Assembly (NCBI GenBank): GCA_964106915.2
Contig: OZ066914.1
Strand: one strand, 5' to 3'
Length of the DNA stretch: 64,000 nucleotides
Source: Podarcis gaigeae
Lineage: Eukaryota
Shown here: positions 968 through 59,400 of the stretch, in pieces
How the letters are laid out: each line of letters opens with the position of its first letter
Position numbering within the stretch: the first letter of the stretch is position 1
Translations under genes and position numbers: made by a program
Notes under the pieces: model-generated
Databases searched by the model: none
Seen by the model: the letters and a program-made list of their open reading frames with translations, nothing else
Told to the model about the DNA's origin: nothing

Positions 968-2533
968 CTGTGAACAGAAACACAGCGTTGGGAACAGGAA
1001 AAGGTTTATCTTGCGGCTTGAAACTGGCTTACGTACCCATCAAACTGCATCCTCCCACCCATTCACTCTCCCACGCAACACTGAAACAAATGCTTCCTCT
1101 TTCTAAAAGATAAATAGTAGAGGGGAGGAACTAACAGGAACAAACATTGTTCCCACCCAACAACAAGGCTGTCCTTCTCCTTCCCAGACATTTAAAGAAG
1201 ATCAGGAAGAAATTGCTCATATGGCACCACAAAAGAAAGTATGTGTCCAAGGCCCTGGTGTGTTACACAGCTGTAAGACAGTCTGACAGTAGGTGTGTAT
1301 AATAATTCAACAAGCACCTAGCAGAACAGGGGGACAATTTTTTCATTATTATCATTATTTATTAAATTTGTGTACCACCCTATACCTGTAAATCTCGGGG
1401 CGGTTCACAACATAAAATTACAATATCAAGGATCTGGTCAGAGGCAAAGCAATGTTTCTTAGGTTTCCTGCCTGGGCATAGCTATTGGCTGCAACTAACA
1501 AAGTGAAGGGTATGTGAAGCAAAACTAAAGTAACTGTTTTGGCCCTAATCAGGTCCTGTCAAAATGACTAAATAGTGTCCCCTCCCAAGGTTAGCTCAAG
1601 CCATTTTGCTGCCTGAGGCAGAGCAGCAAATGCTGCCGACACGGCCAACCAAGTGGTTTTGGCACCTCAAGCAGGAAATCTCACAAGCATCTCTGCCCCT
1701 CCCTGGAAATAAAAATAGAACAGTAACAATTTGCTGTCCTTTCATGACACCCCAAATCAGCTGCCTGATATGCCTAATGGCAGGGCTGGCCCTGCAACAC
1801 CACCTCCCCTCTCCAATGGTTAAATGCCCACAACAGATATTCCTCACAATATAGCACTGGAAAAGGAAGTGAAGGGAAAGGAAGAAGAGGAGCTCAGACG
1901 CCTCAGGGGCCTCTTTCATTCGTCTCTGAGGCATTCGGTACTGTGAGATCTTCTGAGCTCTCACAGAAAGCCCGACCCACCTCCTTATGCATGGTTGTTG
2001 CTGTTGTTACAGCTGTTGTTGCTGTTACAGCTGTAACAACTGTTACAGCTGTTGTTGCTGTAACAGTTATATCCCAAGTTTCTTCCAATGGGAGTCAAGG
2101 TGGTACACACGGCTCTTCACTGCCCCCATTTTATCCTCAACAACAACCCAGTGAGGTAGAGTAGACTGAGTAGAGTAGCTTTCTGACTATTTCAACCCTT
2201 CTCTTCCAGGTCCTAATTCAGCATTCTAACCAGTAGGCCACACTGGGTCTTTCATAGTTATGAAATGCTGGCTTAGCATGGAATAAAGACCTCTCCATTC
2301 CAGTCAACATGGGGTAACAACCATGAGGAGCAGTTTAGCACCCCGTGAAACATTCTCTTTCTGTGAAGAAGCACTTCTGTTTTGTTTGTTTGCATTTTTG
2401 TCCCCTCCTTCCTCTAAGCAGGATACATGGTTCTTCCCATTATATCCTCACAACAATTTTGTGTGGAAGGTTTGGCTGAGGAAAAAAAGCCAGGACCAGC
2501 TCCAGGTTTGAGAGAGCCAAGTATCCCATAATG

Positions 2534-2576
<43 letters not shown>

Positions 2577-2686
2577 GCTTACATGGATGGGTGTGCTTGG
2601 GCTAACCTGATAACGGCAGCAGCACTCCAGAATGGTTTGAGAGCTCCCATTTTAATTTCCCTGCATTCATATTGTTAAAGGCTCAC

Positions 2687-2741
2687 CTGAATTTCAAATC
2701 CAAATGTTTCATTGTCTTCTTTGAAGATTTTAAGTGACTTT
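2687..2741 (-). CDS. CYTIP: CYTIP coding exon 3 (RKSLKIFKEDNETFGFEIQ; PDZ carboxylate-binding loop)
   Basis: DNETFGFEIQ matches the CYTIP motif; tgcag|A acceptor, CAG|gtgagc donor; 55 nt. Confidence 0.95.
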
Positions 2742-4013
2742 CTGCATTGAGAGAGAGAGATACACAGATACACATAAAGTCAATAACCCATTGGAAGGGA
2801 ATAACGTGTTTAAGGCTTAATTTAGAATAAATGTGCTGTTCATCATAAGCATCAGTAGTTCTTAACAAGTGCTTTGCAATGAAAAATCTAAAATCTCCCC
2901 ACATCTCCAAAGATCATGTGGACAGGATTTTTTACAGGACATACATTATTGTACACATCACCAAACTGTCACTGTGAGAATGTGGATCGACTGGATGTGT
3001 GCAAAGCTGAGCATACAAGGAAGCAATCGTGCATTGCCTCTCATCTCCTGCAGCCAAGGATACTTGAGGAATTCATCTTCTGACCAGATCTGCACATCCC
3101 AGATTTAACAAGCAGAACTGTACACAGTTATGCTTCAGATTTCACACTTCCCTGAATTCTGTGATGCAATTTTCAGCTTCAAAAAAGATGAAGTACTGAA
3201 ATGCATATAAAAATGTTTAGGGTAAAATACATTTTAAAAGGGGGAAATACATTCAAAAATACAAATTTTCATGAAGATTTTTTTTTTAAGTAGCAAAAAT
3301 GGGAATGAATGGACTTCTGCATAAACACATCTGAGAGTGACATAGATGAGAAACAGACTCATCCATTCATCCTTCCTCCCAGCTTACCTCCATGTTTTCC
3401 AGCATGGCATCATTTCAACCCACTTTTGAGTTCTGTGCTGGGCATATAGTGAAATGACCACCTAATTGCTTCACCCTTCACAATACTATATGCATGAATC
3501 CTTTCTGTCCCTATATTTGGCCTCCCATTTTGATTGTATGGTCTGGGCCACTGAGTGAAAGGAACGCATCACATATAAAGTGATGCCCCAGTTCCTCTGC
3601 ACTCTGGCCTTCCGTCTACCCAATTGGTAGCACAGGGGAAATGACCAGCCGTGTACTGTATTGGCGAAATGATTTCAAATCATTCTCAATATCATCGTCG
3701 TCAAAAGAAAGTATATACCAACTTTCATTTCCAGAAGAAATACGAAGGTAGTTAACTCTCTAATGATACTCTGCCACACTGCAATATGTAATGGTGGTTG
3801 CATTAGCTACTGGGTTTAGGGATGGGCTGTGGGTATGCATTGCTCAGTCTTTCCACAACTCTCCAGCCCACAGATTTCATTGTAGTTATTTGTTTTTCAC
3901 ACTTTCATCTTCCTCTTTCAGTATCTGCCTTGGGCCTCCACACACAATTGTCACATTTCTAGTAGCAGTGTAATGAACTAATATTTAGAGAGAGAAAGCA
4001 ATGCCTTTATTAC

Positions 4014-16984: not shown

Positions 16985-17104
16985 GGCTATGGCCATACTA
17001 CCCTGAACATTCCCGATCTCGTCTGATTTTGGAAGCTAAGCAGGGTCAGACCTGGTTAATACTTGGATGGGAGACAGCCTGGGAATACCCGGTGCTGTAG
17101 GCTT
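16985..17104 (+). pseudogene. Full-length dispersed 5S rRNA pseudogene
   Basis: 120 nt colinear with vertebrate 5S (GGCCATAC..CCCGATCTCGTCTGAT..GGAAGCTAAGCAGGGTC..TGGATGGGAGAC..GGTGCTGTAGGCTT); about 13 substitutions versus the recalled human sequence; not in a tandem array. Confidence 0.92.
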
Positions 17105-18150: not shown

Positions 18151-18377
18151 TTAGGTGTTGGTCTGCCATAGTCAAAACAAAATTTAAAAATTCCTTCCAG
18201 CAGCACCTTAGAGACCAAAGAGAATAAAGTTTGTTATTGGTATTTAGAGAATAAAGTTTGTTATTAGTATGAGTTTTCATGTGCATGTATCTGAAGAAGT
18301 GTGCATGCACACGAAAACTCATACCAATAACAAACTTAGGTGGTCTCTAAGGTGCTACTGGAAGGAATTTTTTTAAT
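18151..18377. mobile_element. Penelope-like element terminal-repeat fragment with inverted duplication
   Basis: Inverted arms TTCCTTCCAGCAGCACCTTAGAGACC / GGTCTCTAAGGTGCTACTGGAAGGAA; flanking direct repeat CCTATTAGA; contains a hammerhead-like core. Confidence 0.7.
18287..18324 (+). ncRNA. Minimal hammerhead ribozyme motif, variant helix III
   Basis: GUAU-CUGAAGA-A-GUGUG(CAUG)CACAC-GAAA-AC-UC-AUAC: stem I, conserved core and stem II are present. Confidence 0.6.
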
Positions 18378-18683
18378 CCTATTAGAGTTCTCTGACAGTG
18401 TCAACAAGCTTCTATATATAGGTGATCCAGTTGACATAGCATATTTGGACTTTTAAAAAGCTTTTGACAAGTTACCTCACCAGAGACTCCTGAGTTAGCT
18501 TAGCAGTCATGAAATAAGAGAAGTCCTCTTGCAGATCAGGAAATGGTTAAATAGCAGGAAGCAGTGAGTAGGAACAAACAATCCTCTGAGTGGAGAAAGT
18601 GTTAGGGGTGGGCAATGAGGTGACCAGGTTTGCTGCCTATACTAAATTGTTTAGATGAACTAGGTGAGCAGAAATAATAATGA

Positions 18684-41893: not shown

Positions 41894-44800
41894 AAGGCTT
41901 TTGTAGAAAGAGGCAAATAAGGGGTGATACAATACAGGTGTATAAAACAATGCTTGGTTTGGGGAAAGTGGATGGAAAAATGTTGTTTTTTTCTCCCACT
42001 CTCATATCGCTAGAACTTGGGGACATTCAATGACACTGAATGGTGGGAGATTAAGAACTGACTTAGTTGGTCTCTAAGGTGCTACTGGAAGGAATTTTTT
42101 TTAATTTTGTTTTGACAAAAGGAAGCAATTCCTCACGCACTGCATAGCTTTTTTAAAATGCATTTTTATTAAAGATTTTCTTGGTTTACAAAGGTATGTG
42201 CAATGTCTCTCTCTCGGTTTTTTTTCCCCATGCACTGCATAGCTAAACGATGGAATTCGCTTGCACAAGAGCCAGAAATGGCCACCAATTTGGCCATCTT
42301 TTAAAGAGAATTAGGTAAATTCATGGACTATAAGGCCATCAGTGCTTACGGATCATGGAAGAAGGTATATTACTCTCCCCACGCCAGTTCCAGAGGCTAT
42401 GTGACTCTGAAGACCAGTTGCTAGGGAGTTGCTAGGGAGTGTCAAAGAGTGCTGTTGTGCTCATACCCTGCTTGCAGGCCTGGTCTAACTTGAAGGGCTC
42501 TGATGTTCTTACTGTGGGAAGCATATTGTTGAACAACTGCTAAACAAAATGGGTTTGCAGTTTGATCCATCAGTGGTGGTATTCATCCATAACTGTGTCT
42601 ATAGTATCCTCAAATATTGCATCAGTGGAGATTACATTTTCACCATGTTAGAAATAATAGCCTTTGCTGCTTCCTTATAGCCTAGGATGTTTACTTGGAA
42701 GGAAGGGCCACTTATTTTAATCGGACTTACTTCTGAGTAAACTTGCTTAGAATTTCAGACACCAGTCCCCTGAGAATTTGATCAAGAGATAATGCCTCTG
42801 TCTGGAGGTGGGTGGGGCGGAAGAAATCCTGGGAAACAGAACGTTCTGTCTATTACACAGAAAATTTATTTTTAACACTACATCGTGATACTCAATGACA
42901 GGTCATCAGAGGCAACAAAAGTCTGATGAGGATAAACTCATGAACTATGCTGGAAATACAATAAAAAAGTTAACAGCTCAATAAAGCCAAACTGTGGAAT
43001 GATCAAAGTCTGGCCAAAACTAAAGGAAAAATTGCACCATCACCATGTTTACAGCTTATGAATTAGGATACATAAAATCTCCTGGTGACTAACTGAGGCC
43101 ACTAATGGACAACGGTAAACAAAACAGGTCTTCCAGCTCTTATTTAAATACCTACCCAGTTATTTAGGGTTCAAAAACAGAAGCTGTTTATAAATTAACT
43201 TGCAACCAGATGAGTGATCCAATATCTGCCTGATGGATTTGAAGTACTGAATGAATCACTGACCATGTTCTGCTAATGAAGACCACTTTTAAGCAATGGA
43301 ATAGGAAATTTGGTTGCTAAGCAGTTGAAAACAGCCCTTTGAAGGGCAAGGTAAATTAAAAGCAACCAATATATGTCATAAAGCAATAGTAATCCAATTT
43401 CAATTACTAGCAGAAAAACATATTAGTACACAATAGTGGTTTTAACATGCGCATGTTAAAGCAGACCCCTGGCTTGAAGCACTAACTCAAAAAGTTTAAG
43501 TGAATTTACAAGGTAAGCCTATGCCTGTTTACACAGAAATATCTCAGTGAGACTTGTTCCCTAGCAAGTATGTTTAGGGTTGCAGCCGCAGAAGGATATT
43601 CTGAAGTTTTACTACAAACCCATTTCTTCACCAAAGCCTGAGATAGCACTTGGAGGCCCTACTGGAGGATTTTAAGGTTTGGGTAAGTATATGTGGGAGA
43701 AGATCTTTCCGGTTACCTGGTCCAAGCCTTTTAAGGTTTTAAAAGATAAAAATACTACTTGGCCAACTGCAGCTCTGCAGCTCAGCTGACAAAAACATAG
43801 GTGTAATGTGATTAAACTGCCCAGTACCAGTTTTGCTCTTTGGGGATTAATGCAGTTTCCTGACTGTTTTTAAAGGCAGCCCCATGTACAACACACTGCA
43901 TTAGTCTAAACAGGAAGTGAGGAAAGCATGGGTAATTGTGGCCAAGCTATTCTCGCCCAGGTAAGGTTGCAGCTGGCATATTAGACAAAGCTGACAAAAG
44001 TTCCTCATTCAGTTACTTACCTGCCTTCATCTAAAGGTCCCAGGGCAATTTACAATCGAAGACCATATACAGTTATAAAAACAGATAAAGCCGTTACAGT
44101 GATAAAATAAGCAAGCCCATTCCATATGGAATAGTAGAGTAGAAATCCAGTAAAAGAGATGGGGCCCATGAAACAGAAAATCATAATGGTCAAAGACCAG
44201 GATAAAGAGGTCCACTTTTAGCATATGGCAATTGCTACGCAGTGAAGATGTTAGCCGCACACCTGTGGGGAGGGAGCCTGACAGTTTAAGGGCTGCCACA
44301 AAATGCCCTCTCCTGAGTCACCAGTCTGATGAGCGAGCAATAAAGCATCATCCACATACTGCCAATGCCTCGGACAAATCTCTGGTTGAGCTATCCCAGT
44401 TGCTTCATGTAGATGTTAAAACAGCATGGGAGAAATAACAGAACCCAGCAGAATTCAAAAGCATGACAGTCAAGGGTCGAGCAGTAATCTCCCAGTGCCA
44501 TCTTTTGGAAACAGTCATTCAGACAGGAATGGAACTGCTGCCAGGCAATGCCTTCCACACCTAACCTATTCAGAAGGATTTCATGGCTGGTGGTGTCAAA
44601 AGCCATTGAGAAGTCCAGGAGAATCAACAAGGCAGCACTTCCTTACGCCAAGTCAGACAGTTGTCCCATCTAGCTCCTTACTGAAGCTCACTAAATGTGG
44701 CTCCCCAGGTTTCAGACAGGGGCCATTGTCAGCACTACCTGGAGATGTCAGGGATTGAACCAGGAACCTTCTGAATGCAAGGCAAATGCTCTACCACTGA

Positions 44801-45004
44801 GCTATCTATGGACCTTCCCCAACAGGTTCCCTGCCCCTGGTTCAAACAGCATCATTCTGTAGGGTATTGCTTGCAACATCATACAGGAGAGGAGGGAAGG
44901 TGAAGGGACTAGTGGGAGTAATGGGGAGATTTTCCACTAATGCACTACCCCTTTCCACTAAAGGGGTTGGGCTTTTAAAGAGACACACAGAGCTTCTAAC
45001 ATCA

Positions 45005-54834: not shown

Positions 54835-55068
54835 CTGTGGGCAGGTGAATGGTGATGTTGTTGCAGAAATCTGTATAGCAGCATTCTGTCTTGGTTATGT
54901 TCTTAGAACTGTGGCAGAAGATTTGTGCTTTCAGTTGTGGTAGGGAGACACACGCCTTTATTACTTCTTGTCTACCGTTTTTTGTTAGCATGACAGAAGC
55001 CCAGCATGCACCCTCAGTTTCACAGGTGAAGTTTGTTTTTTCACACAACTGGCACACGCATGTTAGAC
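54835..55068 (-). CDS. ACVR1C: ACVR1C exon 2 (extracellular cysteine-rich ligand-binding domain)
   Basis: [28 protein letters not shown]...[17 protein letters not shown] closely resembles the ALK7 ectodomain; ttttcag|GT acceptor, G|gtaagc donor; 234 nt. Signal-peptide exon 1 is not in the window. Confidence 0.97.
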
Positions 55069-57555: not shown

Positions 57556-58516
57556 TGTGATTCCTCACAAATAATTGCCCTCAGCCTCTCTAATTTACTG
57601 AATGGTCCCTACCCAGACAATCATAACATCAGTGCCAATAAACCTCATGGTGCAAAATGTTTTTCAGCATCTGTACCAAATACTTTATTCTTAGAATTAG
57701 AGTATTTTTGCATTATGCATCAAGCCAATACTTGAGTTATGATGCAGAACAGGCCTTTTAAATCTTGTTAAATACAAACACAAACACGCTTGCTTGATGA
57801 CTGCAGTTACACCTGCTGAGAATTGAATCTGTTTTCCATCAGTACAGTTCTAATAGTCCTTTGGGGAAAGGGTGTGTGTGTGTGTGTGTAGCTTGTTTAA
57901 CTGGGTCCTTTCAAGTTAAATTGAGGTATATTTTCAAAATTGCATTTTGCTCTGTGTGCGCTCTATATTTAAACCAAATCCTGTCTTCCTAAAAGCATAT
58001 AATTTTCCATAGCCTTTTAAAGTTATTCAGTGTGTTTTAGTGACTATTTGCCACTAAATATTTGCCTGAATGAAACTACCATTCATGAATTTGTTAGCTG
58101 TAATGAACAAATAAAATTACTCAGACCTTTTTGTTGTCAAGGTGAAGACAGAAAAGGAAAATGCTTATTTTGTATGGAACACAAATGCGGGTCTATAACA
58201 AGCTGTTGTTATGTGGAGTGCTTAAGGATTCCTGCTAGCCAGCCATGCCCTTTCCCAGGTACTGCATTGTCCCTTCTCTCATCTCAACTCCTGAATTATG
58301 CAACCACCCACTGACCATGCTCAGTCATTAGTGGCAAGTTTCTCTCTCAGAACACCCTTCCCCAAAAAGATGTTTCATACTTCAGCAAACTTTACTGTCC
58401 TTCTCTTTCACCCACCCTTCAACCATACATGCTGTAGAAGTGGGAACCCAGACAATCTAGCAAATGCATGTAGGGCAGGGCAGGCCCTGCTATCATGTTC
58501 CTGTTCTTCCCTATGC

Positions 58517-58612
58517 AAAACAAAAAAAAATCCTTCCAGTAGCACCTTAAAGACCAACTAAGTTAGTTCTTGGTATGAGCTTTCGTGTGCATGCACACTT
58601 CTTCAGATACAC
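58517..58612 (-). mobile_element. Penelope-like terminal-repeat fragment
   Basis: Same sequence family as 18151-18377 and ~42062-42115. Confidence 0.7.
58573..58610 (-). ncRNA. Minimal type-I hammerhead ribozyme motif, sense to ACVR1C intron 1
   Basis: Minus strand GUAU-CUGAAGA-A-GUGUG(CAUG)CACAC-GAAA-GC-UC-AUAC with palindromic AGCU in place of helix III. Confidence 0.7.
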
Positions 58613-59157
58613 ACGATCTGTAACTGTAACTTCCCTATGCACATTCCCTATGCACATTTCTGTATCTGTAACTTCCCTATGCACATTCACTAAAATATTC
58701 CTGCCCCCATCCCATTTTGGAACATCCGTTTTAAAAGCATTCTGTGGACAAGACCAACTGGGAACAATTGCTGAGATCACTAGGCTGTTTTGGCTTCTTG
58801 GAATAAAGAGTTAACTTCACCGACACAGTATTTTTATTATTATTGCTGATCTGCACCTGATTCTGACTTCTGACAGGTGAGCACACCTTCCTGTCACCTG
58901 TGTGACATGGTTGACAAGACACAAAAGCAATTTGAAAACCAAATTTGGTTGTCAGTCTTGTCCTTTATCCCATTCTCCCATCAGGCTATCCAGCTTTACT
59001 TTCATAAGCACCAAGCATACTTTCATTCAAACATTCTTCCATCACCTTTGTGGAGTGGGGGATAGTAGTGGTTCAAGATGCAAAACTGCTCTGGGGACTG
59101 ATCAAGGATTGGAAGAAGCTGTGTGTGTTGGCATATGAGAGCCAGTGTGGTGTATAT

Positions 59158-59400
59158 GAGAGCCAGTGTGGTGTAGTGGTTAAGAGCGGTAAACTCGTAA
59201 TCCTTGGAACTGGGTTCTTGTCTCCGCTCCTCCACATGCAGCTGCTGGGTGACCTTGGGCTAGTCACACTTCTCTGAAGTCTCTCAGCCCCACTCACCTC
59301 ACAGAGTGTTTGTTGTGGGGGAGGAAGGGAAAGGAGAATGTTGGCCGCTTTGAGACTCCTTCGGGTAGTGTAAAAGCGGGGTATCAAATCCAAATCCAAA
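59158..59400 (+). mobile_element. Squam3-like tRNA SINE with tandemly duplicated 5' junction
   Basis: Family match; ATATGAGAGCCAGTGTGGTGT occurs twice (59133-59174). Confidence 0.85.

Follow-up and report, generated by a model that had tools for sequence, protein, structure and literature searches.

Intron 1 of ACVR1C in Podarcis gaigeae very probably holds a hammerhead ribozyme that is a passenger on a young insertion, 166 bp long, of a Penelope-like element (PLE) of the Neptune type. The insertion was likely copied from a capped, uncut RNA that starts at the first base of the ribozyme, and the ribozyme in it is predicted to misfold, with likely no effect on the host transcript. We present below the motif and the gene in which it lies, the element from which it came, the places where copies of the family begin, and what these imply for cleavage of ACVR1C RNA. 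The window throughout is the whole 64,000-nucleotide stretch of DNA that was analysed.

The hammerhead motif and its host intron

Read directly on the minus strand from 58610 to 58573, the motif consists of the segments GUAU, CUGAAGA, A, GUGUG, CAUG, CACAC, GAAA, GC, UC and AUAC. Element positions are numbered from +1 = 58610. Helix I (GUAU/AUAC) pairs 58610-58607 with 58576-58573, and the core CUGAAGA is followed by an extra A, a 5-bp helix II (GUGUG/CACAC) closed by the loop CAUG, then GAAA and the palindrome AGCU. Cleavage is predicted after C17, between 58577 and 58576, that is, at +35. In letters, layout and cut site this reading agrees with the first-pass annotation of the same DNA. The features of a minimal hammerhead (min-HHR) are present: a CUGAnGA plus GAAA core with an NUH triplet, here CUC; a helix I of 4-5 bp; a helix II that has the G10.1-C11.1 pair, with one extra base following A9; no helix III loop, the 15/16 positions being palindromic (AGCU); and a location in the pLTR of a PLE. 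By the features tested, the motif is a minimal PLE hammerhead and would work like one. Its earlier classification as a minimal type-I hammerhead of a Penelope-like element, of the dimer type with a palindromic AGCU, is borne out by the sequence and by the pLTR matches. Helix II and its loop (58585-58598) together form a perfect 14-nt palindrome, which likely drives both fold-back of the cDNA and non-productive dimers of the RNA.

The feature (58573-58610, minus strand) is supported by its sequence, by shuffles, by exact genomic copies and by the peak of copy starts at +1 discussed below. The 34-nt core pattern had no match in 100 shuffles at up to three mismatches. The exact 38-mer occurs 9,021 times genome-wide (4,512 and 4,509 copies on the two contig strands), and the reversed control not at all. 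The window has 8 matches to a loose CUGAnGA..GAAA pattern, not significantly more than the 5.6 expected, and the Rfam covariance models gave no hammerhead match to the motif up to E = 10, which is consistent with a motif that has no helix III. Of the checks that the first-pass annotation had proposed, the copy count speaks for the motif, whereas the hammerhead search yielded no Rfam match.

The host gene is identified by its exon 2 (54836-55068, minus strand), which encodes the activin receptor ectodomain and matches, at 100% identity, proteins from lacertids that bear the name activin receptor type-1C. This identity was used for the name in place of PDB comparison, which returned no ALK7 match and ALK4 as the best match. 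A signal-peptide exon lies on a CpG-rich stretch about 3 kb past the window end, with its ATG at extended coordinate 66947, and joins the ectodomain exon in phase. Intron 1 therefore extends from 55069 to past the window end (about 66871 in extended coordinates). The exon identity and the in-phase exon beyond the window place the motif in ACVR1C intron 1 in sense orientation, as had been proposed. Upstream of ACVR1C, on the same strand, are the kinase exons (L062-L063) of another type I receptor gene, which from synteny and sequence we take to be ACVR1-like. The window also contains a 5S rRNA-like copy (16985-17103, plus strand; 84 bits) and a partial tRNA-like match (44748-44804, minus strand), each probably a pseudogene or SINE head, as well as a SINE-like repeat (~59143-59400) with further copies in the window, presumably of the Sauria type.

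The parent element and the structure of the insertion

At many family loci the motif comes after the end of an ORF with RVT_1, GIY-YIG and a Cys-rich linker. At locus L088, one 706-aa frame contains PF00078 (E 9e-11) and PF01541 (E 3e-5), its linker has a Cys cluster at residue 566 and a CxxC at 610, and the hammerhead +1 lies 181 nt after the ORF stop. We found no parent that is intact and full-length; the longest frame made up wholly of element sequence has 706 aa and is 5'-truncated. The single ORF with RT plus GIY-YIG at its C terminus is present in the parent element and not in the window stub. Over its first 80 nt, the window arm is identical at 79-80 positions to pLTRs directly behind RT/GIY-YIG frames at all five loci compared. 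By this sequence identity, the stub is shown to be the pLTR of an endonuclease-bearing (EN+) PLE with RT and GIY-YIG. A Zn-finger-like Cys motif in the RT-EN linker marks both Neptune and Nematis (PMC8557442), and the assignment to Neptune, which rests on the linker motif and the vertebrate host, is provisional. The first in-frame ATG of the element ORF is at +99, inside the tail, and a TATA-like box begins 31-33 nt upstream of +1.

The arrangement of copies was scored in a positional sample, the first 5.5 Mb of contig C1, in which arms with less than 60 nt of flank were dropped and 118 were kept. The first 30 BLAST loci were left out of the counts, as they are biased toward copies that resemble the 5' junction of the query. 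A head-to-head partner was found in 63 of the 118 arms, a tail in 53 and a tandem neighbour in 10. Inverted arms with an optional tail are a known PLE pattern (PMC3846280, PMC8557442).

Divergent motifs of the same genome bear on whether the fold matters to the element. When the window motif was aligned with eight divergent motifs from 30 loci, all found with a search pattern that fixed the core but not the helices, 75% of the helix cells were paired, against 57% in shuffled and 24-46% in slid controls, with double-sided changes at seven of the nine pairs. Since the divergent motifs keep their helices paired, the fold is under selection in active lineages. On the sequence record, selection acts on the ribozyme in the parent lineage, though not at the ACVR1C locus. 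In the parent it would probably act as a dimer- or protein-dependent cutter that takes off a capped 34-nt leader. In the parent RNA, helix I and the core are predicted to be drawn into pairing with downstream bases of the pLTR (+1 to +75; 58512-58610, minus strand), possibly as a built-in off fold. Older, divergent hammerhead families occur in the same genome (L196, L198, L200, L203, L177, L178, L185 and L186), and the motifs of L196 and L198 closely resemble the one published from the turtle. A different GIY-YIG-bearing frame on the minus strand of L026 (about 2200-3100) probably belongs to another PLE family, which by resemblance would be Poseidon-like.

The whole insertion in ACVR1C spans 58506-58671. 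Its 12-bp target-site duplication, read on the minus strand, has an upstream copy at 58672-58683 and a downstream copy at 58506-58517, the same 12 letters fitting either side. The forward pLTR arm (58516-58612, minus strand), recognized by pLTR identity, is 97 nt long, runs from -2 to +95 and ends at the tail-less 3' end. Next to it is a 6-nt fold-back stub (58611-58616, minus strand), which reverse-complements the 3' strand of helix II together with G12/A13. The stub is supported by its sequence, by folding and by the same junction at other loci, where it continues as a full inverted arm (L010-L012, L014, L024-L026); it likely arose by self-priming of the cDNA. The remainder, from 58616 to 58671 (plus strand), is a junction filler of inverted tail-end pieces and two re-copies of the target site, identified from its sequence and by comparison with the tail; it would be the product of abortive priming.

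In all three related organisms compared (B, C and D), the site is empty: contigs join 58505 to 58672 with 12 shared letters, a joint seen in runs X4, X6 and X7 and not in X2. Contigs from a second sample of organism A enter the element from both flanks, and the insertion is present there. Its absence from all three relatives indicates that the insertion is young. The locus is not conserved, as an exapted intronic hammerhead would be, and it has a single copy, with no tandem array of at least two hammerhead units such as would mark a retrozyme. The family has another insertion in the window at 18155-18378, which derives from an older subfamily and has an inverted tailed arm; in its hammerhead (18287-18324, plus strand) G15.2 is changed to A and the AGCU palindrome is broken. 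Two more 5'-truncated stubs, at ~42050-42120 (plus strand) and at extended coordinate ~68520, start past the hammerhead.

Starts of family copies and the template RNA

Family copies begin preferentially at the 5' edge of the hammerhead. In the positional sample, 26 of the 118 arms start at -2 to +1 and three at the cut site (+35). The background is 44 arms scattered over the 44 positions from +6 to +49, and 30 arms read further upstream without a second peak. The class that starts at -2 (12 of 118) is as large as that at +1 (9 of 118), and may come from fold-back or from a second start. Genome-wide, with patterns that demand two non-template bases before the break, there were 1,989 breaks at +1; the cut site had 43, and a control position (+40) had 45. 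The +35 and +40 patterns can be compared like for like; the +1 pattern spans more subfamilies, so that the 45-fold ratio in its favour is only approximate. In 100 listed of the 1,989 breaks at +1, counted by hand, the base at -1 was G in 70, A in 19 and C in 11; the pattern excludes template T at -1, and about 30% G is expected. Loose contig ends at 58610, with a matching first letter, were among the best supported in all four runs (71, 58, 48 and 62 contigs), and the cut site was absent among the best 24 of 619 loose-end positions.

An untemplated G at full-length 5' ends has been read as a copied cap in LINE-1 and SVA (PMC4859970). The excess of breaks at +1, the extra G and the TATA-like box ~31 nt upstream together point to a capped, uncleaved RNA as the template. 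We infer that transcription of the element begins at helix I, that the RNA carries a cap, and that reverse transcription copies it, still uncut, from internal sites near +95 and +130; start site, cap and non-cleavage are all read here from DNA junctions. The motif would then mark the 5' end of the element RNA, a point that the first-pass annotation missed. Reverse transcriptases can add a non-templated C without a cap. The small number of breaks at the cut site does not show that cleavage is rare, since the cut product, with its 5'-OH, might be degraded before it is copied. A literature search, with subscription papers mostly outside it, did not find the coincidence of start site and ribozyme in print.

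The pile-up at +1 could alternatively mark a splice acceptor, or a stall of the reverse transcriptase at the 5' edge of the hammerhead, and not a transcription start. A pyrimidine-rich, acceptor-like TTTCAG does end at -2, which counts against the +1 start, and helices I and II could stall the enzyme. An intron of D. virilis ends at helix I (PMC4209133), and, also against the +1 start, the D. virilis Penelope has a TATA-less internal promoter with an intron 46 bp below the start (PMC2377424). Splicing, however, predicts a common upstream exon, whereas the 100 listed upstream flanks are heterogeneous, and a stall does not predict one exact base with an extra G. The 30 arms that read through upstream without a second peak also tell against this explanation, which we regard as unlikely.

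The junctions at ORF starts raise the question of whether the short unit propagates by itself, as a retrozyme or SINE amplified through hammerhead-made circles. Many of the 61 junctions listed resume at helix I of a new copy, most copies are short and without an ORF, and retrozymes derive from PLE pLTRs (bioRxiv 10.64898/2026.07.22.740005). The same junctions, however, leave the ORF start at variable points and join helix I rather than the cut site, a tandem neighbour is less common than a head-to-head partner (10 vs 63 of the 118 arms), and the window copy is single and without a promoter. Such self-propagation therefore seems very improbable.

With a capped, uncut template as the preferred reading, the insertion could have been made as follows. 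Pol II would initiate at the G of helix I, ~31 nt below the TATA-like box. The element protein would nick the target and begin reverse transcription inside the RNA, at ~+95 or ~+130, and synthesis would proceed through the intact ribozyme to the cap. At its end, the cDNA would turn back on itself over a few bases of the helix II palindrome, and abortive copies of the tail, with priming from the other strand, would be attached to this end, resulting in the 12-bp duplication. The promoter lies upstream of +1 and is hence not copied, so that the stub was likely dead on arrival.

Activity of the intronic copy and comparison with known systems

Whether the intronic copy can cut ACVR1C RNA was assessed by equilibrium two-dimensional folding. 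In the isolated 38-mer both helices are predicted to form (P 0.64-0.98). With at least 5 nt of the real upstream sequence, the predicted probability of helix I is at most 0.036 in 36 of 36 contexts; with 0-3 upstream nt it varies from 0.02 to 0.95 across 12 contexts. In ACVR1C pre-mRNA the fold-back stub would sequester G12 and the 3' strand of helix II by pairing, and is predicted to block the hammerhead fold. The model may under-call the fold, because downstream pLTR bases lower it in the parent too.

The first-pass annotation had proposed a latent self-cleaving motif that other transcripts of the repeat family could activate in trans. On this view, extended to the element protein as a second activator, the ribozyme would cut ACVR1C pre-mRNA when a partner transcript pairs through AGCU or the protein binds, with reduced ACVR1C output as the result. 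The core is indeed intact and lies in sense, potential partner copies number in the thousands, min-HHR dimers and trimers cleave weakly (PMC4209133), and an anole PLE hammerhead cleaves once its protein is added (PMC11167929). The AGCU contact in trans, however, amounts to 4 bp (predicted at -3.9 kcal/mol), and the predicted dimer (-30.6) pairs through the helix II palindrome instead. A partner in cis is also missing: among the family's pattern matches across the window and the 80 kb that follow, ACVR1C pre-mRNA has no further copy in sense. The insertion is absent from relatives B, C and D, and the anole RNA-seq reported with that element had no reads ending at the cut site (PMC11167929).

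Nor is the core protected in inserted copies. In a substitution table of sampled arms (79 of 120 kept), G12 leads all core bases in changes, with 9 of 79 arms affected. Genome-wide, G12A is found in 735 copies and C11.1U in 559, the two outcomes of one CpG. Inserted copies decay neutrally, with G12 lost by ordinary CpG decay. A catalytically dead sublineage and editing were both considered for G12A and rejected: the opposite CpG outcome is nearly as common, the change is spread over several subfamily backgrounds, and at 9 of 30 loci G12 persists in the inverted partner arm. The annotation's expectation of conservation across copies thus holds for the helices, which are kept in divergent motifs, and not for the core, in which G12 is the most mutated base. 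Given the misfold caused by the stub, the lack of a sense partner and the CpG decay of G12, a latent host-gene switch is improbable, and that proposal is not sustained for so young a copy. The accompanying view that a lone monomer would be slow can be accepted as slow or inactive, in line with published min-HHR monomers that did not cleave (PMC4209133). By the folding model, the copy in the ACVR1C intron is likely inert.

A broader role for the hammerhead is doubtful but can be framed. As the first 38 nt of a capped mRNA, the Neptune hammerhead could be a self-decapping off switch, gated by dimerization or by protein; a cut would take the cap and 34 nt, and only uncut RNA would be translated and mobilized. 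In the germ line, the same partner RNA or protein might then act in trans on thousands of intronic copies that are young and in sense; their cleavage would dampen host pre-mRNAs, including that of ACVR1C.

The min-HHR of PLEs is already known as a kind, and the Podarcis family is a further member. Its motif has the same architecture as the min-HHR of Chrysemys picta bellii (Cervera and de la Pena 2014, PMC4209133): GCAU CUGAAGAA GUGGG..CCCAC..AUGC in the turtle vs GUAU CUGAAGAA GUGUG..CACAC..AUAC in Podarcis, with one double-sided change in each helix. The extra base after A9, G10.1-C11.1, the palindromic 15.2/16.2 and the mostly solo, dispersed copies are shared. Unlike in the turtle, helix II and its loop form a perfect 14-nt palindrome in the window, and the window family is very young and homogeneous (9,021 identical copies), whereas the turtle paper stresses the variability of min-HHRs (PMC4209133). 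In two supplementary files of that paper, no lizard or Anolis entry was found.

The parent element resembles the Neptune-clade EN+ PLEs in its RT followed by a C-terminal GIY-YIG, Cys-rich linker and pLTR hammerhead (Craig et al. 2021, PMC8557442; Arkhipova et al. 2013, PMC3846280), and in its inverted 5'-truncated arms, optional 30-40 bp tail and target-site duplication (PMC8557442, PMC3846280). A TATA box with an Inr-like motif in the pLTR is also found in Adineta Pen2a (PMC8557442, PMC3846280). As in PAc, a Poseidon element of Anolis carolinensis, two internal RT start sites bound the tail (Frangieh et al. 2024, PMC11167929). PAc also uses unprocessed RNA as template, and its hammerhead is dispensable for insertion in vitro; its ORF, however, begins inside helix II (PMC11167929), whereas the first in-frame ATG of the Podarcis element is at +99.

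The role of PLE hammerheads is described as unclear (PMC8557442). They have been proposed to cut precursor RNA into templates or circles (PMC4209133), although in the published assays min-HHR monomers did not cleave and dimers cleaved little (PMC4209133). That proposal makes a prediction which is tested here by thousands of natural insertions. There is nothing unusual about the ACVR1C locus itself. What the family statistics add is modest and testable, and they name an exact candidate start site, the G of helix I. With breaks at the cut site no commoner than at the control (43 vs 45) and ~2,000 copies starting at helix I, the family extends the in vitro result from the anole to the genome record.
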